Source: an uncultured Clostridia bacterium
Lineage (GTDB): Bacteria > Bacillota > Clostridia > TANB77 > CAG-508
DNA length: 64,000 bases
Assembly: GCA_948676835.1 (NCBI GenBank)
Contig: CAPOZU010000001.1
Location: 193,250-257,249 of the forward strand
Direction of reading: 5' to 3'
The notes below the pieces were generated by a model. The model saw only the letters and a list, made by a program, of their open reading frames with translations, made no database searches and was not told the DNA's origin. The position numbers were made by a program, and so were the translations under genes. Below, in pieces: positions 8,554 through 58,948 of this stretch (positions are counted from its first letter, which is position 1; every line of letters starts with the position of its first letter).

Positions 8554-8617
8554 TACCTCTCTTCCATGGTTTAATAATATCATACTAATATATCAAAAAA
8601 GTTTCAGTTCAAAAAAA

Positions 8618-8641
8618 GATTGTTTCAAAACTGAAACAATC
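8618..8641 (-). terminator. hairpin between histidine kinase and ABC ATPase (terminator/attenuator ahead of the transporter promoter)
   Basis: GATTGTTTCA aaa CTGAAACAATC perfect stem followed by a T-run on the minus strand. Confidence 0.5.
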
Positions 8642-10224: not shown

Positions 10225-11007
10225 TTATTTAGTTTGACTTTTAAACTCAATATCTAATTCTATAGGGCAATGATCACTTCCCATTACTTCTGGGTGAATT
10301 TTAGCATCTATAATATTTTCCTTTATTCTATCAGAAGTAATAAAATAGTCTATTCTCCAGCCTATATTTTTTTCTCTAGCTCTTCCCATATATGACCACC
10401 AAGAATAACTATCTCCTTTTTCTGGATATTTATATCTGAAAGTATCTACAAAACCTGAATTTAGTAAATCAGTCATTTTACCTCTTTCTTCATATGTAAA
10501 ACCTGAATTTCCTACATTTGATTTAGCATTTTTTATATCTATTTCATTATGAGCGACATTTAAATCTCCACAATATATAACTGGTTTTATTTTATCTAAT
10601 CCTTTTAAATATTCTCGGGTTGCATCTTCCCAAACCATTCTATATGGAAGTCTTTCCAGTTCTCTTTTAGAATTTGGTGTATAACAATTTACTAAATAAT
10701 AATTTTCAAATTCTAAAGTAATTAATCTACCTTCATTATCATGTTCTTCTATTCCTAATCCATAGTTAACACTTATTGGTTCGCTTTTCGTAAAAATTGC
10801 AGTTCCTGAATATCCTTTCTTCTCTGCACTATTCCAATATTGATAATAACCTTCAAATATTGCATCCATAATCATATCTTTTTGTTCTAATTGCATTTTA
10901 GTTTCTTGTACACAAAATATATCTGCATCTATTTCATCAAAAAAATTTTTAAATCCTTTATTTACTACGGCTCTTAATCCGTTAACATTCCAAGATATAA
11001 GTTTCAT
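10225..11007 (-). CDS. xth: exodeoxyribonuclease III
   Basis: 260 aa with MKLISWNVNGLRA start and a C-terminal SDHCPIELD AP-endonuclease motif. Confidence 0.8.
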   Translation of the reverse strand: MKLISWNVNGLRAVVNKGFKNFFDEIDADIFCVQETKMQLEQKDMIMDAIFEGYYQYWNSAEKKGYSGTAIFTKSEPISVNYGLGIEEHDNEGRLITLEFENYYLVNCYTPNSKRELERLPYRMVWEDATREYLKGLDKIKPVIYCGDLNVAHNEIDIKNAKSNVGNSGFTYEERGKMTDLLNSGFVDTFRYKYPEKGDSYSWWSYMGRAREKNIGWRIDYFITSDRIKENIIDAKIHPEVMGSDHCPIELDIEFKSQTK

Positions 11008-25867: not shown

Positions 25868-25943
25868 CGAGGTGTAGCGCAGTTGGTAGCGCGCGTGGTT
25901 TGGGACCATGAGGTCGCAGGTTCGATCCCTGTCACCTCGACCA
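25868..25943 (+). tRNA. tRNA-Pro (anticodon UGG), CCA encoded
   Basis: Hand-folded cloverleaf: acceptor CGAGGTG/CACCTCG, anticodon loop TTTGGGA, T-arm GGTTCGATCC. Confidence 0.85.
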
Positions 25944-25975
25944 TATAAGAGAGTTTTTAAACTCTCTTATTTTTT
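25944..25975 (+). terminator. tRNA terminator hairpin doubling as the att core (attL)
   Basis: AAGAGAG ttttta AACTCTCTT plus T8. The same core recurs at 27391, 27750 and 44261. Confidence 0.7.
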
Positions 25976-26165: not shown

Positions 26166-27335
26166 TTACAGAGTAATTCCGTCATCAAAAAAGCCTTTTT
26201 CTAAATAATATTCTTCTAGTTTATCTGACTCGTTTTGTTTATATTCTTCGGTTAAATCAACATATGTATTTAGAGTAGTTGAAATATCTGTATGTCCAAC
26301 CATATCTTTTAATGCACCTAAATTCATATGTGCTTCATTACATCTTGTTGCATAAGTATGTCTTAAACTATGTGTTGATATATCTGTTATATTAAAGTTT
26401 GTTTCTAATATTTTTTTCAATTTACGATTCACATTTCTGCTATCTACATAATTACCCTTTGGACTTAAAAATAGCATACCATTATCATTATTTTCTGCAA
26501 TTTTTAATTGTTCAATAACACACATTCTTATTCTTTTTGGAATTGGTAAAATTCTATTTCCAGCATAAGTTTTTGTTGTATCTCCCATAATTACTTTTCC
26601 GTCTCCGTCTGTTGTTAAAGTTTTATTTATTCTTATAAAGTTTATATCAGTATTAACATCTTTTTTTGATAGTGCCAAGACTTCTCCAATTCGTAATCCC
26701 ATATACATTTGAATTAGAAATATATTTTTATAATTTTCATCTTTTACATCTAATTTTAGCAGTAAATTTGTAAAGTCTTGTTGTTCTTTAATATTTAATG
26801 CTCGCACCTTTTTTGTTTTTTTATTACTTTTAGGCTTAAATACTTCAGTCATTGGATTTTGTGTAATATAGCCTTTATTTTTAGCATACAAAAAAGCATT
26901 AGTAAACTGTTCAAATATTTTTTTCAAGTATGAATTACTATAATGTTTTAATGAATTTAGATAGCCTTGTATTTCCTCAGTAGACAATTCATCCACTTTT
27001 TTATGTGAAACATTAGAAGTTGATATTAAATTAATTGTTTTAGTTATTCTAGAATATTGACTATCAGAAATTACATTTGAATCATGTTTCCTTTTTGCAT
27101 TTGTTTTCATTATTTCAATTAATGGAATACCGTTATCTTTTATGTATATCGGATTCTCCATTTGACACATTATGCAGTCTAAATAATCTTCAGCTTCTTT
27201 TCTGGTAGGAAAACTTTTTTGTCTTTTTACAACCTTATTTTTTTCATAACTAAATTCATAGTATTGAGCTATAAAGTTATCTCTTCTTTTGTCATAATAA
27301 ACACTACCTATACTTTTTTTCTTTTTTGGTGGCAT
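26166..27335 (-). CDS. int: tyrosine-type site-specific integrase (arm-binding N-terminus plus catalytic domain)
   Basis: HSLRHTYAT...HTDISTTLNTYVDL catalytic motifs. Three AACTCGACAAA arm-type repeats in the 26070-26150 flank. Confidence 0.85.
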   Translation of the reverse strand: MPPKKKKSIGSVYYDKRRDNFIAQYYEFSYEKNKVVKRQKSFPTRKEAEDYLDCIMCQMENPIYIKDNGIPLIEIMKTNAKRKHDSNVISDSQYSRITKTINLISTSNVSHKKVDELSTEEIQGYLNSLKHYSNSYLKKIFEQFTNAFLYAKNKGYITQNPMTEVFKPKSNKKTKKVRALNIKEQQDFTNLLLKLDVKDENYKNIFLIQMYMGLRIGEVLALSKKDVNTDINFIRINKTLTTDGDGKVIMGDTTKTYAGNRILPIPKRIRMCVIEQLKIAENNDNGMLFLSPKGNYVDSRNVNRKLKKILETNFNITDISTHSLRHTYATRCNEAHMNLGALKDMVGHTDISTTLNTYVDLTEEYKQNESDKLEEYYLEKGFFDDGITL

Positions 27336-27442
27336 TTTTTCACTCCTTCAAAATAAATTTGCAAAGTGAAAATGCTTTCAAAGTGTGCAAAAAGAGAGTT
27401 CTAAAACTCTCTTTTGCTTATAAATATTAAATTGTTATACAT

Positions 27443-27694
27443 TTATCTTTCATCATTAGTTTTATTCTCTGTTAATGGTAATTTTTGAACATTATCTATT
27501 TTTTGATACTCAGTTTCATTAGAAGAACATAATATTGAGTGTGCAAATCTAATCGCGTCTTTTCTTGTTTTGAAAAATTTTTGTTTTCTTATTAATTTAT
27601 TTTGTTCATAATCTTTCTCATAATATATTAGGCTAATTTTCTTATTTTTCCTACAAACGCATATAGTAGGCTTAAGATTTCTTTTTGAAAACAT
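27443..27694 (-). pseudogene. integrase N-terminal (arm-binding domain) fragment, remnant of a tandem element
   Basis: 83 aa similar only to the first 80 aa of the integrases. Its 100-bp upstream region (27695-27802) duplicates 27336-27442 at about 95% identity. Confidence 0.5.
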
Positions 27695-27802
27695 ATTATC
27701 ACTCCTTTAAAACAAATTTGCAAAGTGAAAATGCTTCTAAAGTGTGCAAAAAGAGAGTTCTAAAAACTCTCTTTTGCTTATAAATATTAAATTGTTATAA
27801 TT

Positions 27803-28981
27803 TTATCTTTCGTTTTCTTCATCTCTTTCGTTGATGTAATTATTTAAAAAATCTATACCTTGAAGAAATGATTTTGTTTCTTCTAATGTTTCAAAATCTT
27901 TTTTACATTGAATTGTATACTTATCCTTTAAAGATAATGTTTTTCCATAATTCAAATCATCAATTTCGCCATTTACAACTAATCCTTTTTTATCTTTAGA
28001 AAATATCTTTTTATTAATTCTTTTTGTTTTACTCAATATATATTGCTTATTTTGGTCAATTTTTAATTTGTTGTTTTCATAATAATCTAATAATTCATTG
28101 ATATTCATACTTAATAATTTATTACTAGATGTTTTATAAATATCATTTAATCTATTGTGGCTTTGCATATCTTCAATATGTCTTTGCATATATGTACCTC
28201 TTAATCCATGTATTAAAATTCTCTCTTCACGCAAATAATTTTTGAAAATTTTATGTATCATAAATCTAGCTTTAGCATTATTGTAATTATAAAATAAATA
28301 ATTCTCTTTATTTTGTATTGAATCGTTATATTGTTTCATTAGGTTTTCTCTTAAAAAATTTGGAATTTGTAAAGTCCTAGAAGTATATTCATTTGAAGAA
28401 TCTATTTTCATAATATTATCATCAAAATTAATGTCGTCTGGTGCTAATTGGCTAATTTCTCCTGTTCTTAATCCCATATATAACTGCAATAAATAAGCTG
28501 TCTTATATGGTTCTTTTATTATATTAGTTTTTAAAAGTAAGTTAGTAAATCTTTTTTGTGCTGTAATAGATAGAGCAACTGGAAATGTTGTTCTTTTTCT
28601 ATAATTACAAAGCATTGAAATATGTTTAGTCATACTATCATCAAATATATTTTCATCAATATAATTTTGAGATTTTGCAAGTTCAAATCCTCTTTTCATT
28701 AATGAAACATTTTTCTTAATATATGAATTACTACAATCTTTCATTGAATTAAAAAATGTTGCAATATAATTTGTTGTTATCTCAGATATATTTGTATGTC
28801 CAAAAAATTTTTCAATTCTATCTATTAGTACTTTGTCTGTTTCGTAATGTATACGAGAACTTATAGAGTTTTTAGGATTTTTTTCAATTTCCTCTTTTAA
28901 CACATCTACTAAAGAAATATCTTTTTTTGAATCTGACATATAATCACTCCTTAAAATTAATTTGTAAAGTGATACTGTCAA
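27803..28981 (-). CDS. divergent tyrosine recombinase/integrase
   Basis: LYMGLRTGE (box I-like) and HGLRGTY (box II-like). Same upstream RBS and promoter sequence as int1. Confidence 0.5.
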   Translation of the reverse strand: MTVSLYKLILRSDYMSDSKKDISLVDVLKEEIEKNPKNSISSRIHYETDKVLIDRIEKFFGHTNISEITTNYIATFFNSMKDCSNSYIKKNVSLMKRGFELAKSQNYIDENIFDDSMTKHISMLCNYRKRTTFPVALSITAQKRFTNLLLKTNIIKEPYKTAYLLQLYMGLRTGEISQLAPDDINFDDNIMKIDSSNEYTSRTLQIPNFLRENLMKQYNDSIQNKENYLFYNYNNAKARFMIHKIFKNYLREERILIHGLRGTYMQRHIEDMQSHNRLNDIYKTSSNKLLSMNINELLDYYENNKLKIDQNKQYILSKTKRINKKIFSKDKKGLVVNGEIDDLNYGKTLSLKDKYTIQCKKDFETLEETKSFLQGIDFLNNYINERDEENER

Positions 28982-31404: not shown

Positions 31405-32112
31405 TTATACACCTTTAAATCCAGTATTGTTTGATATATCAGGATACCAATAGCCATTTTTTAATAAATTTGCTCGTTCATTATCTGTTAAATTTAATCT
31501 TTTCATAATTTCGCTTTTTTCTTCATCTTTTATTTTTCTTTTAGATAATATAAATTTCTTTATAACTGGTAAGTTAACATCTTCTCTTAATGCTAATAAT
31601 ACACCTGCATTCATTCCGTCTATACTAAATTTCATATTTATTGTAAGTTGCAATTTTTCAAAAGACTGATTTACTGCATAATAGTTTTTTAAACTTATAA
31701 ATGCAATATCAGAATTTGATTCAATAGTTCCAGTATAATATATTTGATTATCCCCTAATAAAAAATCAACTTTCATAAATCCATTTTCTGGAGTTATTTT
31801 TAATCTATATTCAGCTAAACTGCCAAATCCTAAATAATAGATATATAACAAATCTGTTGTAAATGGATTTACAGAAGTTTCTCTATTTACTTCAATTCTA
31901 TCTTTTATAGTCAAGTCATTAATATCTATTTCTAGAACATTACATATTTCTAGCGTAGTAATTAAATCAGGAGCAACCTCGTCTCTTTCATATTTATAAA
32001 CAGTGGTTGTTGATTTACAAATTCTTTTAGCAAGTTCTTCAATACTTAATCCCTTTGATTTTCTTACTTCTCTTATTATTTTTCCAATTTTATAGGCTTC
32101 TAAATTATACAT
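31405..32112 (-). CDS. XRE-family HTH regulator with C-terminal domain (element regulator)
   Basis: HTH KGLSIEELAKRICKSTTTVYKYE. Start refined to the ATG after AAAGGAGA RBS. Homolog at 59717-60424. Confidence 0.65.
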   Translation of the reverse strand: MYNLEAYKIGKIIREVRKSKGLSIEELAKRICKSTTTVYKYERDEVAPDLITTLEICNVLEIDINDLTIKDRIEVNRETSVNPFTTDLLYIYYLGFGSLAEYRLKITPENGFMKVDFLLGDNQIYYTGTIESNSDIAFISLKNYYAVNQSFEKLQLTINMKFSIDGMNAGVLLALREDVNLPVIKKFILSKRKIKDEEKSEIMKRLNLTDNERANLLKNGYWYPDISNNTGFKGV

Positions 32113-32589
32113 ATAGAAATCTCCTTTCAATTGTTTACATAATTATACCATTTTTATAGTGTTTTTGCAACTTTCCTTACAATTTATAAAAATGTGATAA
32201 AATTGCATAAAATGACGAAATATGCTATAATATAGTTATCTATTAAGATAGATAATCGGTTATGCTTTTATAGTATATACTTTAATCCGATTGCTCAAGT
32301 AAGCTTGAAACAAAAATTCTAAGCTTCGCGAGAGCTTGGATTATATATATATTATACAAGGTCATTCGATTTCTGTGTAATATAGTTTGTTAATATCTTA
32401 TTAGAAATTTATTGCACGGGGTACAATCGTAATGGCAGATTCAAAAAGAATATCATTAGGACTTCCTGGAGGATTTCCTATTTATTAATTAATTCTCATA
32501 ATCGAGAAAAAGGGGATTTTTTCCCCTTTCCCTTTGGGGAGAACTGAATTCGTTTTAAACTAGACTACTCGCGATAGTTTAGTTTAATA

Positions 32590-32640
32590 TAAAAGCCATA
32601 GGTTCCGTGTAATTGCCATTACATCCTATGGCTATTTTTT
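32590..32640 (+). terminator. hairpin terminator closing a structured non-coding region
   Basis: AGCCATAGG-22-nt loop-CCTATGGCT then T6. The homologous hairpin is at 59181-59213. Confidence 0.55.
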
Positions 32641-32851
32641 GTCATAAAAATACAATAATTATGATTTTAACCATTTAATGGTAGTTTTTAATATATTTTC
32701 ATTGAAAATATATTTAATTTATTATAAGATTTCTTACATTTTATAACTTTTCTTATAAAAAATAATATTTTTTTGTAATTTTTCTTATAGCCTTCCAAAA
32801 TTGATTTATGTAAACACAAAATGCTATACTATAATCAGAAAGGGGGTATAT

Positions 32852-33232
32852 ATGAACTGTTCTTATGAATATACAAAAGATGTTAAGTATAAATCATACG
32901 AGCAATTTGTTTATAACTCTCTTATCAATTTAGGATTTAATATTAATATTTTTGGAACTAAACTATTAAAAGATTTAATTTTATATACTTATTTCAATCA
33001 AGACTACGATATTTATTTCGATAAAGTTGTATCATCATTTTTTAAATATCGTTCAATTAATAATATTTCTGTAAATACTGCAAGTCATAGAATTTGTTAT
33101 GCAATACAAAATATTAATAATACAATGTTTAAAGATAATTTTTATACTATATTTAATGTAAAATATGATTATTATCTAAAAACTCCTAAAAATTTATTAA
33201 TATTATTTATGAATGTTTTAGAAAATAAATAA
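32852..33232 (+). CDS. Spo0A C-terminal-domain-like small protein
   Basis: Start refined to the ATG after AAGGGGGT RBS. Pattern similar to Spo0A_C, also seen in 58583-58948. Confidence 0.4.
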   Translation: MNCSYEYTKDVKYKSYEQFVYNSLINLGFNINIFGTKLLKDLILYTYFNQDYDIYFDKVVSSFFKYRSINNISVNTASHRICYAIQNINNTMFKDNFYTIFNVKYDYYLKTPKNLLILFMNVLENK

Positions 33233-33264
33233 GAAGTAGTATAATTATTTATCTATAATTTACA

Positions 33265-33501
33265 CTACTTCTTATTTGGTATATATTCAACTATATCTGT
33301 TATAGAACAATTAAAATAATCACATAATCTTGCTAGAACAAATATATCAATTCTAACTAATTCGCCAGTCATCAATCTTTTTATAACTTTGAAATCTGTG
33401 TTTGTATCTCTGATAAGTTTATTGATACTTATATTATTTCTTTCTATTAAATCTTCTAACTTGAAAAGATAATAGCCATTTTCTATCTTTACTTTCACCA
33501 T
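33265..33501 (-). CDS. small Cro/CI-type HTH regulator (paralog 1 of 4)
   Basis: 78 aa, about 75% identical to 56173-56409, 57951-58187 and 58300-58536. GAGGTAATTAGT-ATG RBS. Confidence 0.65.
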   Translation of the reverse strand: MVKVKIENGYYLFKLEDLIERNNISINKLIRDTNTDFKVIKRLMTGELVRIDIFVLARLCDYFNCSITDIVEYIPNKK

Positions 33502-33542
33502 ACTAATTACCTCGACTTGATTATATAATTAGTATTTGACAC

Positions 33543-33571
33543 TTGACTATTGGTTATACAACCAGTATAAT
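33543..33571 (+). promoter_or_regulatory. consensus sigma-A promoter with embedded palindromic operator (TGGTTATACAACCA) divergent from the Cro-like gene
   Basis: TTGACT-17-TATAAT. The 14-bp palindrome at 33551-33564 lies in the spacer. Confidence 0.7.
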
Positions 33572-33606
33572 AGTTTAGCTGTTAAATTTTGAAAGGAGAA
33601 AATGAG

Positions 33607-33738
33607 ATGCATAAAAAATTAGATGATGAAATAGATATGATAAAAAAAGAAAAAGCAAAAATAGTATCAGAATGTGATTTTGAAAGTTTATGTAAAAAAC
33701 TTGAAAACTTGTTCATGGACTTTGAGAGAAATAGGTAG
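33607..33738 (+). CDS. 43-aa leader ORF; its stop overlaps a hairpin
   Basis: AAAGGAGA RBS 8 nt upstream. Stop TAG at 33736-33738 is the 5' stem of hairpin TAGTTC-acattgc-GAACTA followed by a T-run. Confidence 0.3.
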   Translation: MHKKLDDEIDMIKKEKAKIVSECDFESLCKKLENLFMDFERNR

Positions 33739-33805
33739 TTCACATTGCGAACTATCTATTTTTATGATATAAATTATTTAAATAAATAATTTGCAGAGGT
33801 AAAAA

Positions 33806-34123
33806 ATGAAAATTTTTAGAGTTATAAATATAATTATTACCATTTTAAATATAATGTATTTAGTTCTAATAAATACATTATATGTTCAACTCCCAGTACC
33901 TAATAAAGAATATTTGAGAGATTTAAATTTTGGTGGTACTTTTCCAAAATATTTTATAAATTTTTCTTTGATTAGTTTGTCTATAAATATATTATTGATT
34001 ATTTTATATTATTTTAAATATCGTAAAAACTTAAAAAAAATAGAAACTATAACAAATATTGTATTAATAGTAATTGAATGTATAGTAATCATTTTAAGTT
34101 TACTTTATGCTAAATATATTTAA
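33806..34123 (+). CDS. small membrane protein (3 TM)
   Basis: 105 aa, hydrophobic. First of a co-directional cassette. Confidence 0.45.
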   Translation: MKIFRVINIIITILNIMYLVLINTLYVQLPVPNKEYLRDLNFGGTFPKYFINFSLISLSINILLIILYYFKYRKNLKKIETITNIVLIVIECIVIILSLLYAKYI

Positions 34124-34138
34124 TGTAAGGGAGAAAAA

Positions 34139-34390
34139 ATGAATATATTATATGTTCCACTAATTACATTTATAAGTACATTCGTATTTCAAGTAATTAT
34201 AATATTTATATTTAATTATTTAAAGTATAGAAAAAAATCACAAGAATTAACTCCAGAAGAAGAATATAAAAAGAATATTAGATTTATGATAAAAATTTTA
34301 ATAGCATTAGTAATATCACTTATATTATCAATAGTTTTTTACTTTGGTAGTGTAATGTATACATTTTATGAGTTAAGAAAAGGACACTAA
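34139..34390 (+). CDS. small membrane protein (2 TM)
   Basis: 83 aa. Gap of 15 nt to the previous gene. Confidence 0.45.
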   Translation: MNILYVPLITFISTFVFQVIIIFIFNYLKYRKKSQELTPEEEYKKNIRFMIKILIALVISLILSIVFYFGSVMYTFYELRKGH

Positions 34391-34420
34391 TTTCGTTATT
34401 AAACAGAAGGGAAAATTGAA

Positions 34421-34783
34421 GTGGAAATAAATACTTTTTTTATAGTAATAACAATACTTATACTTGCAATTTTTATTATAGGAAAATTAAAACAAAATGA
34501 AAAAATAAGAATGAAAATACTATTATTACTTATATTTTTATATAATTGTTTGGTAGGAAAGGCTAGTTTTCTTGCTTTTTACATTATAATTTTTTCAACT
34601 TTATTTTTTAATTCTTTTATGTTAAGTACAATAATAATTGGTCTATATTTCTTATTATTACTAGTTCCAATTAATATTTATGTAAAAAGAAAAATTGCTA
34701 TTAGTTGGAAAAAATATGTATTAATAAATATGATAAGTTTCTTAATTGGTGCGTGTATATTGTGGAGAAAATTTAATATTTAA
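34421..34783 (+). CDS. small membrane protein (4 TM)
   Basis: 120 aa. Confidence 0.45.
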   Translation: MEINTFFIVITILILAIFIIGKLKQNEKIRMKILLLLIFLYNCLVGKASFLAFYIIIFSTLFFNSFMLSTIIIGLYFLLLLVPINIYVKRKIAISWKKYVLINMISFLIGACILWRKFNI

Positions 34784-34795
34784 ATTAGAAGTTAG

Positions 34796-35215
34796 GTGAT
34801 ATGTTTGAGAAAGAAAATATTAACTTGTATATTTATTATTTTAATTATATTTTTATTAATTTTTATACATTGGAATGTCAGAAATAAACAAAAAATATCT
34901 TATGAAGCTACTCAAAAATTAATGCAACTATTATACATAGAAAATTCATCATCATTTTTACCAATTTCAATTAATACAGTTGATTTGGGATTTGGAGATA
35001 CTACTGAATGCTATGTATTAAAATTTGAAATATCAATAGAAGATTATAATGAAAATTCTTTAGATTATAACGATATAGATACAACAGAAAATTCATTAAA
35101 TTGGAAAGAGAAAAAAGATGAGCAAACGTATATATGTTATGTTAGAGAATGGGAAGAAAATGAACATAGAAAAGATTTATTTAATGAGCTAAAAAAATTG
35201 AAAGAAAAATATTAA
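34796..35215 (+). CDS. membrane-anchored protein with acidic extracytoplasmic domain
   Basis: N-terminal TM then a roughly 105-aa domain. Confidence 0.45.
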   Translation: MICLRKKILTCIFIILIIFLLIFIHWNVRNKQKISYEATQKLMQLLYIENSSSFLPISINTVDLGFGDTTECYVLKFEISIEDYNENSLDYNDIDTTENSLNWKEKKDEQTYICYVREWEENEHRKDLFNELKKLKEKY

Positions 35216-35237
35216 AAGTATTAGAAATGGAGAAAAA

Positions 35238-35993
35238 ATGAAAAATAGTATAATAAAAATTTTAGCAATAATTATATGTATAATTATTGTTGTTGTTGCA
35301 ATATTATCAGTAATGTTAAAAAATAATCAAAAAAATAAATCAAATGAATCTGAAAATGTTAGAAATTATATAGTATATGATTCTGAAAAAGAAAGTGAAA
35401 TAGGCGATATTGAGAAAGATGTATCTATAACCGGTATAGTCGAACTTCATCACAATGGATTTATTTATATATTTGGTGGACAACATTTTGGTGAATTAGG
35501 CTATGAAATAGAAGAATATACAACTTCTAATATTGATGATACTAATCAAAGTTGTATAGACTATTTAACATTAAAAGAATATGATACAAGCTATATTGAA
35601 GAAGATGACTTAATAATTTGTTCTGGTGATTTAATTAAAAAAGGAAGTTTTAATAATGATTTTAAAACTAAAGGTTCTATCGTTGTTTTAAAATCGGATG
35701 ACTATAATCAGATGAAGAGTGACACTATATGTGGAAAAAGAACATTTGAATCTACAATAGTTGCTGGAGATATTTATAAAGAAGAAGGGTACATGTATTT
35801 AAAATATGATATAGAAGATGATACAAATTCAGATACAGTTTATCATTTCCCATTTATACAAAAAGTATATATTAATGAAAATACAGAAATAATTGGAAAT
35901 TTACAAAAAGGAAATATAGTAGAGGTAGAATATGAAAATTTAAGTGAATCATTAGTTGATTTAAAATTGAAATCAATAAAAGTCATTGAGTAA
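35238..35993 (+). CDS. membrane-anchored/secreted protein
   Basis: N-terminal TM then a roughly 220-aa domain. Confidence 0.45.
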   Translation: MKNSIIKILAIIICIIIVVVAILSVMLKNNQKNKSNESENVRNYIVYDSEKESEIGDIEKDVSITGIVELHHNGFIYIFGGQHFGELGYEIEEYTTSNIDDTNQSCIDYLTLKEYDTSYIEEDDLIICSGDLIKKGSFNNDFKTKGSIVVLKSDDYNQMKSDTICGKRTFESTIVAGDIYKEEGYMYLKYDIEDDTNSDTVYHFPFIQKVYINENTEIIGNLQKGNIVEVEYENLSESLVDLKLKSIKVIE

Positions 35994-36020
35994 TTAGAAA
36001 AAATATTCATAGAGGTATGT

Positions 36021-36950
36021 ATGAAAAAAGTTATATTTATCTTGGCAGTATTAATCATTATTATAATGCTTATATTGCAAATTAATAGAATTCAAAAAAT
36101 GCAGAAAAATGATAATTTTGAAAATGAAATTTTATATGATTTTAAATATTTTTCCCCTATTAATTCAGAGGTTTATTATGGAGATACCATGAAATTTCAT
36201 AATTCAATTTATTACGAAGTAATAAATGATTATAAAGAATATTTATTATATAAAAATAATTATCAAGATATTTTAGATATGTCTGAGAAAGATTTTGAAA
36301 CTAATTTTATGATTTTAACAGTAACGGAAAATGAATCCACTAAAAATTTAGCTTTTGGTAGTATTAATTCAGATAATAATACCTTATATATTGGGTTAAG
36401 TAAAGAAAATAGTATAAAAGAACCTGATTTAGATAGAGGAATATCAATTAAAATTGATAGAGCATTACTAAAAGAAAACGTTGATATATATATAACAATA
36501 GATGATATAGATTTTATGAATAATTATGAAAATATAAAAAATCTTTCACAAAATTATACAATAGAAAATGCTATTGCTGATAGATGTTTTGTTATAATAA
36601 CAAATCCTGCTAGTAATATAGATGTTTTTGATGAATTTATTGACAATATAAATAATAATAAAGATGCAGAAATAAGAATTGTTTCGCAACTATCAACAAT
36701 AGAAAATAGTTTATTAATATATGATATAAAATATTCTAATTTAAACAATAAATATTATGTTTGTAAAGATTCATCTAGAAGTACCATGTCTTCAGAGAGT
36801 TATAACTATTTTGAATTTGATAGTTTTGAAAAAGAAGATTTAACAGACAGTATTTTTAGAGAACCACAAAAAATAAGTTCTTATCAATTTTATAATAATG
36901 AATTTCCAGAAACTAATATTAAAATTCAGTTTTATAATACAGAATATTAA
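36021..36950 (+). CDS. membrane-anchored/secreted protein
   Basis: N-terminal TM then a roughly 280-aa domain. Confidence 0.45.
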   Translation: MKKVIFILAVLIIIIMLILQINRIQKMQKNDNFENEILYDFKYFSPINSEVYYGDTMKFHNSIYYEVINDYKEYLLYKNNYQDILDMSEKDFETNFMILTVTENESTKNLAFGSINSDNNTLYIGLSKENSIKEPDLDRGISIKIDRALLKENVDIYITIDDIDFMNNYENIKNLSQNYTIENAIADRCFVIITNPASNIDVFDEFIDNINNNKDAEIRIVSQLSTIENSLLIYDIKYSNLNNKYYVCKDSSRSTMSSESYNYFEFDSFEKEDLTDSIFREPQKISSYQFYNNEFPETNIKIQFYNTEY

Positions 36951-36978
36951 TAAAAATTGAGTATAAAATATTTTATAC

Positions 36979-37293
36979 TCAATTTTTATTTTCTTTATTT
37001 TTTTGTTTTTTATTAACTAATATGTTAGTAATACAAAAAATTATTGTTGGAATGTTAAATATAATAAAAAGTATAATATAAGAAGGTATTTCCTTTACGA
37101 AATTATCTTTTACTGGATTTCTATATTTTTGGCTCTCATTTATATTATAAATTACAAGACCTAAAACATTCATTAAAGATAAAATATAAGAAATAATTGG
37201 TAGAACATATTTTCCAAATTTATTCTTTGCAATTAAGATATGTATTGCTTCAAATGGCAAAGAAATAATTATAAATACTTTTATCAATTCCAT
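36979..37293 (-). CDS. small membrane protein
   Basis: 104 aa with 3 hydrophobic helices and a K-rich tail. Confidence 0.4.
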   Translation of the reverse strand: MELIKVFIIISLPFEAIHILIAKNKFGKYVLPIISYILSLMNVLGLVIYNINESQKYRNPVKDNFVKEIPSYIILFIIFNIPTIIFCITNILVNKKQKNKENKN

Positions 37294-37375
37294 AAAATAG
37301 ATCCTTTCAAATGTATTTTACTAATTATATCAATATTAGTTAATTTATTAAAGCAGTTATTCAAATTTTAGTTTA

Positions 37376-38341
37376 TTAATTTTTTTGAAAAGATTTTATG
37401 AAATTATCAACTAAGTTTTTAAATGTATGTACAGGAAAATTAAATAGTTGTTTGGCAACTTCAAAAGTTTTTTCAATATAATTCTTTAGTTTATAATTTT
37501 CTTGCTTTAAATTTTCGTTTTCACGTTTCAAATTAGTATTTTCTTGTTCAAGTTTTATACATCTTTCAATTGCATTTTGAGATTTTATATAATAACCTCT
37601 TAATGTATTTGTATACTTAACTAGCTTTTTATTATGTAGTTTAAGTTCTTCTATGTTATTACTATTTATTTCAGTTATAGGTGTTTGAGTTTGTTCATAT
37701 TTTATATTTTCATATTCTGTTATACTTTTTAATGTTTCAATAGGAATATGTGCATTTTCTTTTGCATTTCCACGTTCTAAATCAAAACCTGATTTTATCA
37801 TATAAGAATAAAAATTATCTTGTAATCTTTTATAACTGTCTTTTCCTCTCCAGTATTCAGAACAAGCAATTTTATTAATTATTTTTCCACTTTTATTATC
37901 TAATTTGTGTATAACTGGAACAAAAACAATATGCATATGAGGTGTTGTTTCATCTAAATGTACTTTTGCTGATACAATATAATCTTCGCCTAAATTTTGA
38001 TAACTTGATACAAATTTATAAGCAGTTTGAAAATATCTTTTTGTTTCTTCTAGTCCAATTTTTTCAAAAAATTCTTTATCAGATGTAATTATAAATTCAC
38101 ACATTACATTAGTTGTTTTTATAATTCTTCCTTGTAAATTATGTTCTTCTTGTAATTTTTTTAGATAATTTGTGTATGTTGTTTGTGGATTTTTTAAAGA
38201 GTAATTTTTACAAAACATATTCTTATTAATATCTTTATTAGAATAGTTTGTGTTTTTTCTTTCGTTATGTTTGTAAAGTCCTGCAAGATTATCTCTTTTG
38301 TAATTAGCATTTCTTATAATAGCATAACTCATATAAATCAC
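37376..38341 (-). CDS. mob: MobV-family (Mob/Pre) relaxase
   Basis: KVHLDETTPHMHIVFVPV is the HxDExTPHxH motif of Mob_Pre. 60% identical to 61927-62928. Confidence 0.75.
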   Translation of the reverse strand: MIYMSYAIIRNANYKRDNLAGLYKHNERKNTNYSNKDINKNMFCKNYSLKNPQTTYTNYLKKLQEEHNLQGRIIKTTNVMCEFIITSDKEFFEKIGLEETKRYFQTAYKFVSSYQNLGEDYIVSAKVHLDETTPHMHIVFVPVIHKLDNKSGKIINKIACSEYWRGKDSYKRLQDNFYSYMIKSGFDLERGNAKENAHIPIETLKSITEYENIKYEQTQTPITEINSNNIEELKLHNKKLVKYTNTLRGYYIKSQNAIERCIKLEQENTNLKRENENLKQENYKLKNYIEKTFEVAKQLFNFPVHTFKNLVDNFIKSFQKN

Positions 38342-44183: not shown

Positions 44184-44249
44184 AACATAGCAAAATTATA
44201 TAAATATAAAATGTATATTACTTATTTATTTGAAAATATTATCAAGGTT

Positions 44250-44290
44250 CACCTTGACCATATAAGAGATTTTCTAAACTCTCTTATTTT
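44250..44290 (+). repeat. attR: degenerate duplicate of tRNA-Pro 3' end plus hairpin core
   Basis: caccttgaccatataagagattttctaaactctcttattttt versus attL cacctcgaccatataagagagtttttaaactctcttattttt. Confidence 0.7.
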
Positions 44291-44828
44291 TATATTTAGT
44301 AAATTTATTTCTATAAATTATTTTTTAATTTATACCAAGTTTCATGGTATCCCTTTCTTCCACCAATAATTTCTCCTGTTGTTGTATCTACAAAATAAGT
44401 ATAACATTTATCTGATGGGCTTGCATCAATATCCATATCATATATTACAGCAACCATCCAAGCCCTTCTCATTAAATAATCTGTACGATAATATACAATA
44501 TTTTCAATAGGATAGTTTGAAGTAGATTCTTTACAATGACACTTTAAATCATATTTGACATAATTATATAAATAATGCTATAATATTTATACATTGATGA
44601 ACTAGCCGTTCATTATGTAATACTTGATATGTGGTGATGACACATATCTTTTTTTATTTCTATAAAAACAGAGCAAGTGATGACTGCTCTGAACTGATTT
44701 TATTCAGTTTTTGATAGTTTTTCTTTGTATGAAGGAAATCCCTGATTCCTAAAAGAGTTTTTATTTAGTGATAGAAATGTAGTTTGTTTAAGTTGCTATA
44801 GAGTTTTATACATTTTTGGTTCTTTTTG

Positions 44829-54420: not shown

Positions 54421-56064
54421 TTATTCATTTGTTTCATCCTTCATTTTCATTTCAATAATTAGTTCTTCTTTTTTATTTGTTCGCAAATGTATTTTTATAT
54501 TTTCTGTTCTATCAAAATATGTATAATTAAACAATGCGTGATATCTAATTTTACCAGGTTCTATCATTTCAAATCCAGTTCCTTCTGAACCTACTTCATA
54601 AAATTTCTCTCCATTTTCATTTTCTATATATAATTCATTAAACGCTAACATATCAAACACATTCATTGTTTTCGGATTTCTATTTTGCATTTTTTCAAAA
54701 TCAATTTTCTTAGTATTTGTTATTAACTCTAATCTCATATTAGACATAGATAAACTAGCTTCTATTACTTCTGTTCTATTATCATTAATATTAACTACTT
54801 CATACTCTATTGTATTTCTTTTTTCATATATTTCTTCTAAGTCTACTTCAAATTCCCAATTACCTGTAATTGTTCTACACTGACTTTTAGGTGTATCTTC
54901 AAAACCATTTACTAAAGCAAATGCATAGGCTTTGCTATTTAAAAAATAGATTGTATCAAATTTAATATGTAATACTTTAGATTCAGGAAATTTTTTTGAT
55001 GATATTAGTTCAGAAACAAGAAATTTATTATTATTTTCACTGCTAAAAACTTTTCGTGTACTCCCTCCATTAGAACATCCTGTATAAAACTCTCCTTTTT
55101 CAAAATTATTGTCCTCACAAAAATCTATAAATTCTTGTACATGTTTATAATCTGCATGTAATATATTATTATTTTCATCCATAATTAATAAATTATCAAA
55201 TTCAATTTTTGATACATCTAATTTCTTTAAAAACTCATTATTCTCTACTAAAATATTGAATACAATAGATAAATTATAATCATCTAGCATAACTGAATCA
55301 ATTTTGGCTTTTATACCATTTGATAATACATATTTCATATCTATTTGAGCTTCATAGCTATTATCTATAGCTGTCGTAATTCCTTCATTATATGTACCAA
55401 AAATGTTTTGGGTTAAATTATGAACAATTAATCTAATTTCTTCAGCAAACGTAATTCCAGATAAAAATAATCCAACACAAAGTATTGTAATAAGTAGTTT
55501 AGATAATTTACTATTTTTATAAAATCCTTTTGCAACTAGATTTTTTCTTAACTCTTTTTTTCCTCTATGTACAAGATTTTTGGTATTTTGAATTGTTTCT
55601 CCTAAAATCTGTGATGTTTCCTTATATGATAATTCCTCGATTTGAGTTAAATATACTGCATTTTTATATTTATCCTCTAATTCATTTATTGCATCAATTA
55701 GTTCTTTTTTAGTTTCTTCACATGAAATAAATTCAGCTATATCTGACTCTACAGCTTCACCTTCATTTTTTATATATTTTTCTGTTATTTCTTCTCTTCT
55801 TTTCTCAGTTTCTATATAAGAAATTGCCCTACTTTTTGCAACAAAATATAAATAATTTTTAAAACTATAATTTTCTTTAGATTGATTTTGAAATACATAT
55901 ATAAAAACATCTTGGGTTATGTCCTCTGCTCTTTGATAATCTTTTACAATATTAAAAACAAAGAATTCTATTTTACTTTTGTATTTACTATATAATAAAT
56001 CGAAAATTTCTTTTTTGCCTTCGAAATATTCATTGTATAATTTGCTATCTAAATCTTTTCCCAT
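54421..56064 (-). CDS. fused ECF sigma factor / anti-sigma factor (sigma-70 r2 plus r4, TM, extracytoplasmic domain)
   Basis: Region 2 AEDITQDVFIYVF, region 4 LSYKETSQILGETIQNTKNLVHRGKKEL, then a TM (LLITILCVGLFLSGITFA) and a roughly 340-aa outside domain. Confidence 0.55.
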   Translation of the reverse strand: MGKDLDSKLYNEYFEGKKEIFDLLYSKYKSKIEFFVFNIVKDYQRAEDITQDVFIYVFQNQSKENYSFKNYLYFVAKSRAISYIETEKRREEITEKYIKNEGEAVESDIAEFISCEETKKELIDAINELEDKYKNAVYLTQIEELSYKETSQILGETIQNTKNLVHRGKKELRKNLVAKGFYKNSKLSKLLITILCVGLFLSGITFAEEIRLIVHNLTQNIFGTYNEGITTAIDNSYEAQIDMKYVLSNGIKAKIDSVMLDDYNLSIVFNILVENNEFLKKLDVSKIEFDNLLIMDENNNILHADYKHVQEFIDFCEDNNFEKGEFYTGCSNGGSTRKVFSSENNNKFLVSELISSKKFPESKVLHIKFDTIYFLNSKAYAFALVNGFEDTPKSQCRTITGNWEFEVDLEEIYEKRNTIEYEVVNINDNRTEVIEASLSMSNMRLELITNTKKIDFEKMQNRNPKTMNVFDMLAFNELYIENENGEKFYEVGSEGTGFEMIEPGKIRYHALFNYTYFDRTENIKIHLRTNKKEELIIEMKMKDETNE

Positions 56065-56172
56065 ATATTATCTCCTTCAATTATACATACCCATATGATA
56101 TTAAAAAGTTTCACATTTTTCAAATTTTATTTTTTATATACATAATGATATAATCAAATTGAGGTAATTAGT

Positions 56173-56409
56173 ATGGTAAAAGTAGAAATTGAAAATGGTT
56201 ATTATCTTTTCAAATTAGAGGATTTAATACAAATAAACAATTTGGGTATAAATAAACTTATTAGAGATACAAATATGGATTTTAAAGTTATAAAAAGACT
56301 GATGACTGGTGAATTAATAAGAATAGATCTCTTTGTCTTATCAAGATTATGTAATTATTTTAATTGTTCTATTAAAGATATAATTGAATATATACCTAGA
56401 AAAGAGTAG
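56173..56409 (+). CDS. small Cro/CI-type HTH regulator (paralog 2)
   Basis: 78 aa with GAGGTAATTAGT-ATG RBS. Divergent from the sigma/anti-sigma fusion gene. Confidence 0.65.
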   Translation: MVKVEIENGYYLFKLEDLIQINNLGINKLIRDTNMDFKVIKRLMTGELIRIDLFVLSRLCNYFNCSIKDIIEYIPRKE

Positions 56410-56736
56410 TATGAAACTAGAAGAAGCGATTAAAATAAGAATTAATTATTTTATGAAAAAAAATAATATCAATCTAAAAGACTTCTTTGATGACCCAATG
56501 TTTTTAGATGTAGAAGATATAGCAGAAGATTTGAAGAATTAAATATATATAATTTTAAAATTTTTTAAATATTGTTAAAAGCAAAAAAATAAACCGTACT
56601 TTGTACGGTTTATGGTGAACCAGAGCGTAAAAAATGTTGAAATATCTAGCTATATTTATCATTTGGGGTAGTCTTTGGGTAAGTATTTTGAGAGATGTTG
56701 TAAGATGTTGAAATGTTTTATAGTTTAATTCATTAC

Positions 56737-57189
56737 TTAAGTATTATATTTATCGAATATATTTTCGAGTATATCTATAGTTTTTCCTTTATCTGAAACA
56801 ATATCATAATATCTATTGTTGCCTACCTTATATAACGAATTATTATTTAATTCTATATTATTATCAGTTATATAAAAATATATTCGGTAGTATATATCTT
56901 TATGTACAAGAGGAATTTTTATTTTTTCTAATTCAATATAGTCTGAAATTTCTTGTAATTCTAGTAATTGGATTATTTCCTGTTTTTCTTGCTCATTTAT
57001 ATTTTTTAAGTTAACAGTATTATAACTAGTCTTACCTGAAAGAACCCAGATAGACCATATAGGCATTGTTATTATAATTAACATTGCTATTAAGACTAAA
57101 ACTATTGAAATTATTAGAAAAACATTTATTTTATTACTTTTACTTATTTTTTTTATGTCTTCATCTAATTTTTTTTCCCATTTATCCAT
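56737..57189 (-). CDS. membrane-anchored hypothetical protein
   Basis: 150 aa with one TM. Confidence 0.35.
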   Translation of the reverse strand: MDKWEKKLDEDIKKISKSNKINVFLIISIVLVLIAMLIIITMPIWSIWVLSGKTSYNTVNLKNINEQEKQEIIQLLELQEISDYIELEKIKIPLVHKDIYYRIYFYITDNNIELNNNSLYKVGNNRYYDIVSDKGKTIDILENIFDKYNT

Positions 57190-57296
57190 AGAATTTCCTC
57201 AAATTATAATTTATTATAAAAATATTTTAACATAAATTTTCTAATGATACAATAAATAGAAAAACTCGTATCTTAAAAGGTTACAAGTTTTTTTAT

Positions 57297-57839
57297 TTAA
57301 TTTTTAAAATTATAGTCATTATCAATTTTTGAAAAGATTTTTAAAAATTCTTTCTTTTCTGTTTCAGAAATATTATTTATAGATGAATGTACCAAAATTT
57401 CTCTTTTAATTAATTGATATTCTTCCTCTGTGTATAATTTTTCTTCAACAAATATTTTTAATCTTTCTAAAATTTCTATTTGTGTTTGATTTAAGTATTT
57501 TGAAAACTCAACAATTCTTTTACTACAATATTCCTCTGAATAAATTTTTATTTCTTTTTTTAAATCTGATAGTTCCATTCCTGTTAATAATCCAATATTA
57601 TAGATAAGTGCAAATTCATATGTTTTATGGTCTATCATATAATTGTTATACTTTTCAAAAGCATTCTGTAATTCTGTATTATTTGTTTTTGAACAAATTA
57701 TTTCATGTAAATCTGTAATACAATTTTCTTGTTTACAGTAATCTGTATTTTTCAATAATACAGATAAATTATTTTCTATAATATTAGACACTCTTTCTAA
57801 TTCCTCTTTTGAAAATATGTGTTCATTAATTTCTTGCAT
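57297..57839 (-). CDS. hypothetical protein driven by a Cro-switch promoter
   Basis: 180 aa with AAAGGAG RBS. Downstream of the minus-strand TTGACT-17-TATAAT promoter at 57874-57902. Confidence 0.4.
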   Translation of the reverse strand: MQEINEHIFSKEELERVSNIIENNLSVLLKNTDYCKQENCITDLHEIICSKTNNTELQNAFEKYNNYMIDHKTYEFALIYNIGLLTGMELSDLKKEIKIYSEEYCSKRIVEFSKYLNQTQIEILERLKIFVEEKLYTEEEYQLIKREILVHSSINNISETEKKEFLKIFSKIDNDYNFKN

Positions 57840-57873: not shown

Positions 57874-57902
57874 ATTATACTGGCTATATAACCAATAGTC
57901 AA
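57874..57902 (-). promoter_or_regulatory. consensus promoter plus palindromic operator (TGGCTATATAACCA) of Cro-like switch 3
   Basis: The reverse complement reads TTGACT-attggttatatagccag-TATAAT. Confidence 0.65.
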
Positions 57903-57950: not shown

Positions 57951-58187
57951 ATGATAAAATTAAAGATAGAAAATGGCTATTATCTTTTTAAATTGGAAAA
58001 TTTACTAAAAGAAAGAAAATTAAGCATTAATAAAGTTTTAGAAGATACAAACACAGATTTTAAAGTTTTAAAAAGAATAATGACAGGAGAATTAGTTAGA
58101 ATTGATATATTTGTAATAGCAAGATTATGTGATTATTTTAATTGTTCTATGAAAGATATAATTGAATATGTACCGAATAAGAAGTAA
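57951..58187 (+). CDS. small Cro/CI-type HTH regulator (paralog 3)
   Basis: Start refined to ATG 57951 (MIKLKIENGYYLFKL) to match paralogs. The ORF track starts at GTG 57939. Confidence 0.6.
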   Translation: MIKLKIENGYYLFKLENLLKERKLSINKVLEDTNTDFKVLKRIMTGELVRIDIFVIARLCDYFNCSMKDIIEYVPNKK

Positions 58188-58225: not shown

Positions 58226-58254
58226 ATTTAAGTGGTTGTATAGCCAATAGTCAA
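58226..58254 (-). promoter_or_regulatory. promoter/operator of Cro-like switch 4 (TTGACT-17-TTAAAT; operator TGGTTGTATAGCCA)
   Basis: Reverse complement of 58226-58254. It points leftward into the end of paralog 3, suggesting a tandem-duplication relic. Confidence 0.45.
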
Positions 58255-58299: not shown

Positions 58300-58536
58300 A
58301 TGAAAAAAATGAGAATAGAAAATGGCTATTATCTTCTCAAACTAGAAGATTTAATAAAAGAAAATGATATAAGTATTAATAAAGTTATTCGAGATACGAA
58401 TACAGACTTCAAAGTATTAAAAAGAATAATGACAGGAGAATTAGTTAGAATTGATATATTTGTAATAGCAAGATTATGTGATTATTTTAATTGTTCTATG
58501 AGAGATATAATTGAATATGTACCAAATAAAAAGTAG
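58300..58536 (+). CDS. small Cro/CI-type HTH regulator (paralog 4)
   Basis: 78 aa, 85% identical to paralog 3. Confidence 0.65.
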   Translation: MKKMRIENGYYLLKLEDLIKENDISINKVIRDTNTDFKVLKRIMTGELVRIDIFVIARLCDYFNCSMRDIIEYVPNKK

Positions 58537-58582: not shown

Positions 58583-58948
58583 CTAGTTACTTATCAAATA
58601 ACATATTAAATCTTCTATAAAATTTTTTGAAGATTTATATTTTTCATCATATTCAAAATTAAAAATGCTTGAATAATTATCTTCATATTTTTTTGAAGAA
58701 TTATAAATACAGTCATTAACTGCCTGCTTAACAGAAGCCATACTTTTTGTATATTTTTTTGCAATAGCTGTATAATATGAATTTAAGTTCAAAATTTCTG
58801 ATTCTTTTTTAATTTCACTTAAAACAATAATTCTTATATAATTTGCTCCATTAGTTTTATAGGAGATACCTAGAGTTTTCAAGATATTAAAAATAATAGA
58901 ATTATATTTATTTAATTTTTTATCTTTATATTGATTATATAATTCCAT
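58583..58948 (-). CDS. Spo0A C-terminal-domain-like small protein
   Basis: 121 aa with a pattern resembling the Spo0A_C DNA-binding domain (GISYKTNGANYIRIIV...KKYTKSMASVKQAVNDCI). Confidence 0.45.
   Translation of the reverse strand: MELYNQYKDKKLNKYNSIIFNILKTLGISYKTNGANYIRIIVLSEIKKESEILNLNSYYTAIAKKYTKSMASVKQAVNDCIYNSSKKYEDNYSSIFNFEYDEKYKSSKNFIEDLICYLISN

Follow-up and report, generated by a model that had tools for sequence, protein, structure and literature searches.

The 64-kb window analysed here, the whole 64,000-nucleotide stretch of an uncultured Clostridia bacterium, harbors four open reading frames (ORFs) for a 78-aa helix-turn-helix (HTH) protein of the Pfam family HTH_26. Three of them belong to a compact cassette in which the HTH_26 gene is divergent from an outward promoter (P_out) with a palindrome in its spacer. 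The cassette is probably a portable repressor/promoter unit, in which a dimer of the HTH_26 protein represses the outward sigma-A promoter via the spacer operator. This reading is built on the anatomy and conservation of the cassette, on cargo that varies between loci, and on the fact that gene and site occur together. The ~350-bp cassette is found again, hardly altered, ahead of unrelated genes in more than a hundred genomes of uncultured gut Firmicutes. The comparative evidence from cross-species conservation and gene/site co-occurrence is very strong, and both support binding of the palindrome by the HTH_26 protein, which would lower transcription.

Architecture of the cassette

The four genes are distributed between the chromosome (copy 2) and two integrative mobilizable elements (IMEs), IME1 (copy 1) and IME2 (copies 3 and 4). 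The features of the cassettes are as follows.

33265-33501, minus strand: copy 1 HTH_26 regulator gene, on IME1 (PF13443, E 1.6e-13)
33520-33549, minus strand: candidate promoter of the copy 1 HTH gene itself, TAGTCA, 18 nt, TATAAT (10/12), an inferred assignment
33543-33571, plus strand: P_out of copy 1, TTGACT (33543-33548), 17 nt, TATAAT (33566-33571), pointing away from the HTH gene
33551-33564, no strand assigned: copy 1 operator, TGGTTATACAACCA, within the spacer of P_out
56173-56409, plus strand: copy 2 HTH_26 gene, chromosomal, divergent from a fused extracytoplasmic function (ECF) sigma/anti-sigma gene, without operator
57874-57902, minus strand: P_out of copy 3, TTGACT, 17 nt, TATAAT, with the operator at 57881-57894
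57951-58187, plus strand: copy 3 HTH_26 gene, on IME2
58226-58254, minus strand: relic P_out of copy 4, TTGACT, 17 nt, TTAAAT, with an intact operator at 58233-58246
58300-58536, plus strand: copy 4 HTH_26 gene, on IME2, a tandem duplicate of copy 3 with a period of 349 bp

Relative to the copy 1 protein, identity is 82% for copy 2, 76% for copy 3, and 81% for copy 4, and across all copy pairs it spans 68–85% at the amino-acid and 78–87% at the nucleotide level. A previous description of this DNA from its letters alone (the sequence-only reading) had placed the four 78-aa genes correctly (at 33265, 56173, 57951, and 58300) and had given their identity too narrowly as 75–85%. Copies 3 and 4, which are 85% (aa) and 87% (nt) identical, constitute a 349-bp tandem duplication of the cassette. 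The block common to the window copies measures ~340–360 bp and runs from the outward −10 to just beyond the HTH stop codon. This ~350-bp unit, ahead of variable accessory genes, is the sole part common to the copies and to about 80 loci of other species, which bears out the earlier notion of a modular, duplicating repressor-operator-promoter cassette.

P_out of copy 1, whose spacer is ATTGGTTATACAACCAG, is the best promoter match within 32500-37500. The TTGACT-17-TATAAT architecture stands as first described, with the correction that the promoter is not perfect: its −35 hexamer is TTGACT and not TTGACA, a match at 11/12 positions. The operator, TGGYTRTAYARCCA, is a 14-bp near-palindrome with exact matches across the 64 kb at 33551-33564, 57881-57894, and 58233-58246 only. 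In these three window copies, it lies in the 17-bp spacer as claimed, 2 nt past the −35 and 1 nt ahead of the −10. The individual copies are imperfect, with 10–12 of 14 bases symmetric, and the copy 1 operator, TGGTTATACAACCA, is one base off the consensus proposed earlier, TGGYTRTATARCCA. In the family consensus, TGGTTATATAACCA, the symmetry is perfect.

The outward promoter of copy 4 was rightly taken for a relic; its −10 has decayed to TTAAAT, losing the key A of the second position, and it aims into the 3′ end of copy 3. Copy 2 had been credited with a degenerate palindrome. No palindrome is found upstream of copy 2, and in the equivalent place the 108-nt spacer between this copy and the ECF gene holds, as read from the sequence, a promoter-like TTGAAA-17-TATCAT site instead of the operator-bearing promoter. 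At copy 1, the −35 of the candidate HTH promoter overlaps that of P_out on the opposite strand.

Within the window alone, the sites do not exceed chance. Promoter-like hexamer pairs number 59, with 58 expected in shuffles of this AT-rich DNA, and palindrome matches with ≤2 mismatches are not enriched. Because the window alone shows no excess over chance, the significance of the site rests on cross-species conservation and on the co-occurrence of gene and site.

Conservation across other genomes

A scan of GTDB (one genome per species) with the protein alignment as query yielded 134 relatives, of which the best 80 loci were analysed. All 80 belong to metagenome-assembled genomes (MAGs) of uncultured gut Bacillota labelled Clostridia, Clostridium sp., or Bacilli. 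The hosts of these MAGs include human, rabbit, mouse, and ruminants, and the distribution among Clostridia- and Bacilli-labelled MAGs is patchy. A tblastn search over the 80 loci and the window recovers 90 gene copies, 84 of which have ≥200 nt of upstream sequence. The palindrome is present upstream in exact form in 60 of the 84 copies, with one mismatch in 15, and with two mismatches in 5, at 62–111 nt ahead of the start codon. Conversely, 62/63 exact palindromes in 623 kb of loci fall in the 200 nt that precede the start of an HTH_26 gene.

Anchoring the upstream regions on the palindrome and removing duplicates leaves 77 non-redundant regions. TTGACT occurs at the same offset in 65/77 and TATAAT in 54/77; both hexamers are exact in 51/77 and within one mismatch in 60/77. 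Palindrome positions G2, G3, C12, and C13 are invariant (77/77). Information content drops to ~0 (background) directly past the outward −10, while on the other side conservation ends beyond the −10 block of the HTH gene itself. The ATTATATAAT block, which corresponds to the candidate HTH-gene promoter, is moderately conserved among the loci.

The association also holds in reverse. The 29-mer TTGACTATTGGYTATATAACCANTATAAT, used alone as a query against metagenome contigs, finds 45 sites, and at 39/45 a divergent HTH_26 homologue lies no more than 150 nt away, in some cases with only ~60% identity to copy 1. The remaining sites comprise two contig ends, one truncated HTH gene, one insertion sequence (IS) element in the place of the HTH gene, and two orphan promoters. 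The orphans, at 8598-8626 and 10303-10331 of locus L102, are exact 29-mers ahead of tandem pilin-like genes with leucine-rich repeats (LRRs; 500 and 523 aa), and no HTH_26 gene is nearby; action in trans is therefore apparently used.

It could be argued that the 29-mers are alike only through recent horizontal spread, with no selection on the site, or that some other host protein binds it. The cassette is indeed carried by mobile elements in the window, and its occurrence among MAGs is patchy as described. Against this, the adjacent HTH coding sequence has diverged to 60–80% amino-acid identity with many synonymous changes, and both flanks are at background similarity, whereas the 29-mer is unchanged. 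The 29-mer is thus under purifying selection. As no further gene co-occurs with the site, another host protein is not indicated either, and the probability of this explanation is close to negligible.

Repression by the HTH_26 protein is consistent with two further features. The recognition region of the protein, DTNTDFKVxKR, is invariant even among proteins that are ~60% identical, which fits the invariant operator; covariation between operator variants and the recognition helix was sought, and the helix is invariant and the variants are few. In addition, 5 of ~80 loci harbor a second operator 26–34 bp downstream, most of them at 32–34 bp, i.e., about three helical turns, as is expected for a repressor. 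At least four of the five two-operator loci precede pilin-like genes.

The HTH_26 protein

The copy 1 protein is a member of Pfam HTH_26 (PF13443, Cro/C1-type HTH) and of no named subfamily. It scores 51.1 bits, with a gathering threshold of 22, and covers profile positions 1–62 of 63; PF13443 is present in all listed homologues. In public data, the family comprises ~1,550 clusters at 90% identity, none of which is named beyond “helix-turn-helix transcriptional regulator”.

An AlphaFold2 model of the copy 1 protein, built with 40 homologues, has a predicted local distance difference test (pLDDT) score of 91.6 and an XRE-type helical DNA-binding fold. It consists of a beta-hairpin (residues 2–13), four helices, and a C-terminal strand (residues 71–75), with the HTH at approximately residues 26–45. 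The nearest solved structures by Foldseek are VanU-G (E 3e-4), CylR2, and the N-terminal domain of SaPI2 Stl. Many other XRE regulators, including 434 Cro, 434 repressor, SinR, and controller proteins of restriction-modification (R-M) systems, also match, and the top PDB fold matches are XRE-family regulators throughout. By sequence, VanU-G alone is weakly detectable among solved structures. The protein is a single domain, in which no cleavage or sensor domain (e.g., S24 autocleavage) is recognised.

The family is rare in viral contigs, with only three loci in IMG/VR. A tblastn search with the protein against PLSDB plasmids and GenBank phages retrieves only unnamed regulators at 26–35% identity, and megablast of 33000-36000 against the same collections retrieves no match. 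A phage-repressor or defence-system reading finds no support, since neither the 78-aa protein nor the leader or cargo genes described below have a PHROG or PADLOC match. A full-text literature search for HTH_26/PF13443 gives Aca/AcrIIA1 as the only lead.

Proposed mechanism

Binding, repression, dimerization, autoregulation, and cross-talk would proceed as follows. The cassette is envisaged as a self-contained unit of ~350 bp, with a monocistronic HTH_26 gene back-to-back with a near-consensus sigma-A promoter that points away from it. The protein most likely binds the 14-bp palindrome TGGYTATATARCCA as a dimer. The site may extend to ~20 bp (TAnTGG…CCAnTA) and reach both hexamers, with the flanking TA…TA symmetry behind this suggestion being weak. 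Once occupied, the operator would fill the 17-bp spacer and exclude RNA polymerase, turning the downstream genes off, and any gene placed downstream of P_out would come under the same repressor control. The class of core-promoter operators is defined by a palindromic site in the 17-bp interval that separates the two hexamers of a consensus-like promoter, and this arrangement is found here.

Other roles for the palindrome were rejected. MerR-type activation from the spacer is at odds with a 17-bp spacer and two hexamers near consensus; MerR-type promoters have 19–20-bp spacers. An RNA hairpin or terminator would have a 5-bp stem and a 4-nt loop, without a U-run. A recombination (att/dif-like) site is rejected on the location of the element ends, which are found elsewhere at tRNA genes.

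The promoter of the HTH gene would share the −35 region on the other strand, with the operator centre near −44 of its start, and owing to this position the repressor is unlikely to block its own promoter. The bound protein may instead tune its own synthesis, either by removing the competing polymerase or by contacting polymerase directly. A hint at such a second role of the operator comes from 9/77 sites, window copy 4 and eight other loci, in which the −35 and the operator are kept while the outward −10 has decayed.

The same nine sites can be taken further, to a palindrome that serves mainly for autoregulation of the HTH gene, with the outward promoter being secondary, i.e., a competitor or a by-product of the shared −35. 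The overlap of the −35 hexamers on opposite strands, and the negative autoregulation of VanU-G, the nearest solved relative (PMC4405338), accord with this alternative. It is nonetheless improbable. An outward −10 that is exact in 54/77 regions, and within one mismatch together with the −35 in 60/77, implies function, and a ribosome-binding site (RBS) and ORF follow P_out at a regular short distance. Moreover, orphan promoter/operator copies precede genes without an HTH gene nearby (L102), and second operators are situated downstream of the outward −10.

If P_out is repressed as proposed, the chromosomal and element copies should cross-regulate, because they share the same recognition helix and operator. 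The simplest reading would be dosage control, in which a burst of expression on entry into a low-repressor cell is followed by shut-off. Relief of repression could come from dosage or dilution after transfer, or from an additional partner.

Several points weigh against this proposal. Copy 2 is without any operator, and in the nine −10-less sites the operator may mainly serve the promoter of the HTH gene. No sensor that would account for induction can be recognised in the protein. Control of the copy 1 cassette over the six cargo genes, which follow the hairpin described in the next section, is indirect at best. All relatives are from uncultured organisms, and no paper was retrieved by a full-text search with the operator sequence in four versions.

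Genes downstream of the outward promoter

33607-33738, plus strand: leader ORF, 43 aa, preceded by an RBS, first gene after P_out of copy 1
33727-33763, plus strand: hairpin of 15 bp, then a U-run (dG −16.1 kcal/mol, z −5.0), a candidate terminator/attenuator
33806-36950, plus strand: six IME1 cargo genes (105, 83, 120, 139, 251, and 309 aa), function unassigned
56737-57839, minus strand: copy 3 cargo, a 180-aa gene (57297-57839) and a 150-aa gene (56737-57189), no family match

The genes downstream of the outward promoters are those listed by the sequence-only reading. The six IME1 cargo proteins are mostly membrane proteins or N-terminally anchored, as judged from transmembrane counts. They have no significant Pfam, PHROG, or PADLOC match, and their genes have no homologue among the 80 related loci. 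The leader and the 180-aa protein have no match in Pfam, NCBIfam, or PHROG; the latter recurs in two loci, L012 (downstream of a cassette) and L023.

P_out of copy 1 had been said to drive the leader as well as the six membrane/secreted proteins. This is conditional on read-through, because the strong hairpin at 33727-33763, overlooked earlier, separates the leader from the cargo. The leader stop codon is located in the 5′ arm of the hairpin, the minus-strand version of which is flagged as a terminator, and a promoter-like TTCACA-18-TATGAT overlaps it. No known leader or riboswitch is found by Rfam in 33000-34200. A related element in a mouse-gut MAG (L010) is 86% identical over window 31414-33799, and its stretch 2943-3130 corresponds to window 33607-33800, from the leader ORF onward; in it, not one base differs in the hairpin or in the 45 nt that follow. 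The leader homologue of this element has 37 aa, is ~40% identical, and is six residues shorter. Homology stops just before the cargo genes, and the cargo thereafter is wholly different. Leader and hairpin look like a candidate translation-coupled terminator/attenuator between the promoter and the cargo slot, of which the hairpin region is a candidate border. Among the cargo of L010 is a 210-aa protein (1269-1901) that is chloramphenicol acetyltransferase-like by eye (HHxxxDG motif).

Apart from the HTH gene, the related loci have no gene in common, and the first outward genes across loci fall into many unrelated groups. In the largest group, with 24 loci, the encoded proteins are variable and combine BspA-type leucine-rich repeats (LRR_5, E 4e-11) with an N-terminal methylation motif that is pilin-like (weak N_methyl match). 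Other first outward genes encode ABC-transporter ATPases with large permeases, a P-type ATPase, a RecX-like protein, and fn3 surface proteins, as well as many differing helical proteins of 43–90 aa.

Mobile elements and genomic context

25932-25974, plus strand: attL of IME1, the 3′ end of tRNA-Pro (25868-25943) plus flank
44249-44291: attR of IME1, a 43-bp direct repeat 93% identical to attL
56572-56624, minus strand: left-end att copy of IME2, which duplicates the 3′ end of tRNA-Arg(tct)

The four genes had been treated as paralogous copies of one system. They are instead one chromosomal gene and copies on two separate mobilizable elements. IME1, which carries copy 1, measures ~18.3 kb and is inserted in tRNA-Pro. 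It encodes a Mob_Pre relaxase and a ParE toxin in addition to two tyrosine integrases, a DUF3846 protein, a 241-aa XRE protein, and a small Spo0A_C-like protein. IME2, which is related to IME1 and carries copies 3 and 4, is inserted in tRNA-Arg(tct) and runs from ~56624 past the end of the window, beyond which the tRNA, the relaxase-distal part, and the integrase are located. Assignment of both elements as IMEs is based on PF00589 integrases and PF01076 Mob_Pre, as well as on the tRNA-3′-end direct repeats at both and an empty site for IME2; no type IV secretion system gene is in the Pfam lists of either element, a search that was not exhaustive.

The empty site is seen in a contig from another sample (L138, 5888-6800), which is identical to window 56060-56623 and then runs on directly into an intact tRNA-Arg and chromosomal genes. 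This contig proves the left boundary of IME2 at ~56624. It also retains copy 2, which is therefore chromosomal; assignment of copy 2 to IME2 or to a relic of a third element is rejected on the same grounds. In the indexed blocks of the collection, the exact copy 1 protein is found in 38, the copy 2 protein in 217, the 180-aa IME2 protein in 152, and a chromosomal helicase in 158. As the copy 1 protein is present in the fewest blocks, IME1 is the rarer, accessory element.

Several side observations concern the surroundings of the cassettes. The tandem integrases of IME1 (389 and 392 aa, 26166-28981) are each preceded by a ~130-nt repeat (27323-27451 and 27682-27811, 88–96% identical), which suggests either a duplication or that two elements have accreted at tRNA-Pro. 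The fused ECF sigma/anti-sigma gene from which copy 2 diverges encodes 547 aa (54421-56172; Sigma70_r2/r4_2, weak DUF4179 match), and a homologous ECF gene is near an HTH_26 cassette in L025 and L026 as well. The gene just 3′ of copy 2 (56411-56542) encodes 43 aa in the window after a 132-bp in-frame deletion that removes the helix-turn-helix; in the IME2-less strain (L138 6239-6502), it is a second HTH_26-type gene of 87–96 aa.

Each element also harbors a small-protein gene convergent with an HTH_26 gene, 32801-33232 (plus strand, 143 aa) and 58583-58948 (minus strand, 121 aa), whose products are 23% identical (E 3e-5). The 121-aa protein has a weak match to the Spo0A C-terminal DNA-binding domain (TIGR02875, E 1.7e-4), and the pair could be receiver-less Spo0A mimics. 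Likewise, each element has one larger XRE protein, 31405-32130 (minus strand, 241 aa) and 59717-60424 (plus strand, 235 aa), the two being 32% identical and consisting of an N-terminal HTH and a conserved unassigned C-terminal domain. The 241-aa protein matches the PHROG “transcriptional repressor” (E 1e-11). These XRE proteins are better candidates for master regulators of the elements than the 78-aa protein.

The sequence-only reading had proposed a Cro/CI-like switch, possibly tied to element induction. A true bistable switch of this type would govern excision and transfer, with the HTH_26 protein as the maintenance repressor and the outward product as its antagonist. The divergent back-to-back promoters and an operator at about −44 of the HTH promoter recall the geometry of lambda PRM/OR2, and 3/4 copies reside on IMEs. 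In two loci, L051 (3712-3897) and L057 (3701-3886), the first outward gene does encode a 61-aa XRE-type HTH protein. Within the window, however, the first outward genes have no DNA-binding or other family match, each cassette has a single operator, and the HTH_26 protein is devoid of a sensor or cleavage domain. The integrase, relaxase, and DUF3846 genes are outside the outward transcription units, and both elements have the separate larger, CI-like XRE protein. Most cassettes elsewhere are chromosomal and non-mobile, beside housekeeping genes (e.g., a CtsR-like cluster, by eye), and precede pilin-like surface proteins; in phages, the family is nearly absent. Neither the switch nor the link to induction is thus supported, a bistable switch being highly unlikely.

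At L051 and L057, one of which is a related mobilizable element, the pair is divergent in a genuinely Cro/CI-like manner.

Implications

The cassette is a real but ordinary repressor-controlled promoter and embodies no new regulatory principle. Its interest lies in that sequence alone defines a regulator and its predicted operator for a large set of uncultured gut Firmicutes of low GC content, with an operator and promoter that are precise and testable. The site is usable for regulon prediction, covering pilin-like LRR surface proteins, transporters, and mobile-element cargo, and the 29-bp promoter/operator together with its 78-aa repressor might be used in such organisms as a small, portable part for repressible expression. 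The annotation of the window is corrected: it contains two mobilizable elements integrated at tRNA genes, with defined ends, and of the four copies three are borne by these elements and one is chromosomal.

A broader and rather doubtful extension is that the cassette is a horizontally shuffled “plug-in” expression module, whose copies form one trans-acting network across the chromosome and mobile elements. Incoming elements would then put their cargo under the resident regulon, and the additional repressor genes that they bring would in turn shut down like promoters of the host. In many genomes, host promoters of this type drive hypervariable pilin-like LRR surface proteins; under such a network, elements could remodel the host surface, e.g., excluding phages or other elements.

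Comparison with known systems

VanU-G from the Enterococcus faecalis vanG operon (PDB 3TYR/3TYS) is the best match among solved structures (sequence profile E 0.017; Foldseek E 3e-4, TM ~0.7). It is likewise a small (75 aa) XRE-type protein and shares the C-terminal motif LxxxCxYxNCxxxDIIE with the 78-aa protein. VanU-G acts as a repressor on imperfect inverted repeats of 14 bp, which it binds and which span sigma-70-type promoters, and it autoregulates its expression (PMC4405338). The two proteins are only ~21% identical, and the 78-aa protein scores 19.6 bits against the VanU equivalog model (NCBIfam NF000090), well below the cut-off of 150. Furthermore, VanU-G is encoded by the first gene of the operon that it represses and competes with a response regulator, whereas the 78-aa gene is monocistronic and divergent, with no two-component system present.

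CylR2, the E. faecalis cytolysin repressor (PDB 1UTX/2XIU), is a 66-aa HTH protein of similar fold (TM 0.72–0.84) and 17–18% identity. It dimerises via beta strands and binds an inverted repeat amid divergent overlapping promoters. CylR2 works with CylR1, a membrane protein from the same operon, in answer to a quorum signal; no CylR1-type partner is encoded beside the window HTH gene.

Aca proteins and the AcrIIA1 N-domain are small HTH regulators of mobile elements that repress a strong promoter via an inverted repeat in the core promoter, sometimes with a second repeat. The logic in common with the cassette would be a limit on accessory-gene expression after entry, and AcrIIA1 carries an HTH_26 domain (PMC9410906). 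AcrIIA1 is not among the solved-structure sequence matches at E≤1, and the genes downstream of P_out include neither a known acr gene nor a member of a defence-related family. Aca genes are downstream in the operon that they repress, whereas the window HTH gene is divergent and monocistronic and departs from the Aca-type arrangement.

R-M controller proteins (C.AhdI and C.BclI) have ~80 aa and the XRE fold, with 12–13% identity to the 78-aa protein. They bind palindromic operators at promoters and time expression after transfer. They differ in acting on their own promoter, and no restriction or methylase genes are near the window cassette.

The lambdoid and 434 CI/Cro systems share with the cassette the XRE-type fold, the divergent back-to-back promoters, and the 14-bp palindromic operator, a 14-bp palindrome being also the operator of phage 434. 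Unlike these systems, the cassette has no second repressor, tripartite operator, cleavable C-terminal domain, or phage genes. The hallmarks of a Cro/CI switch, i.e., an antagonistic DNA-binding pair, an operator array, control of induction genes, and a domain for inducible inactivation, are not found in the window. By analogy, the cassette would work like many small XRE repressors whose operator resides inside the core promoter.

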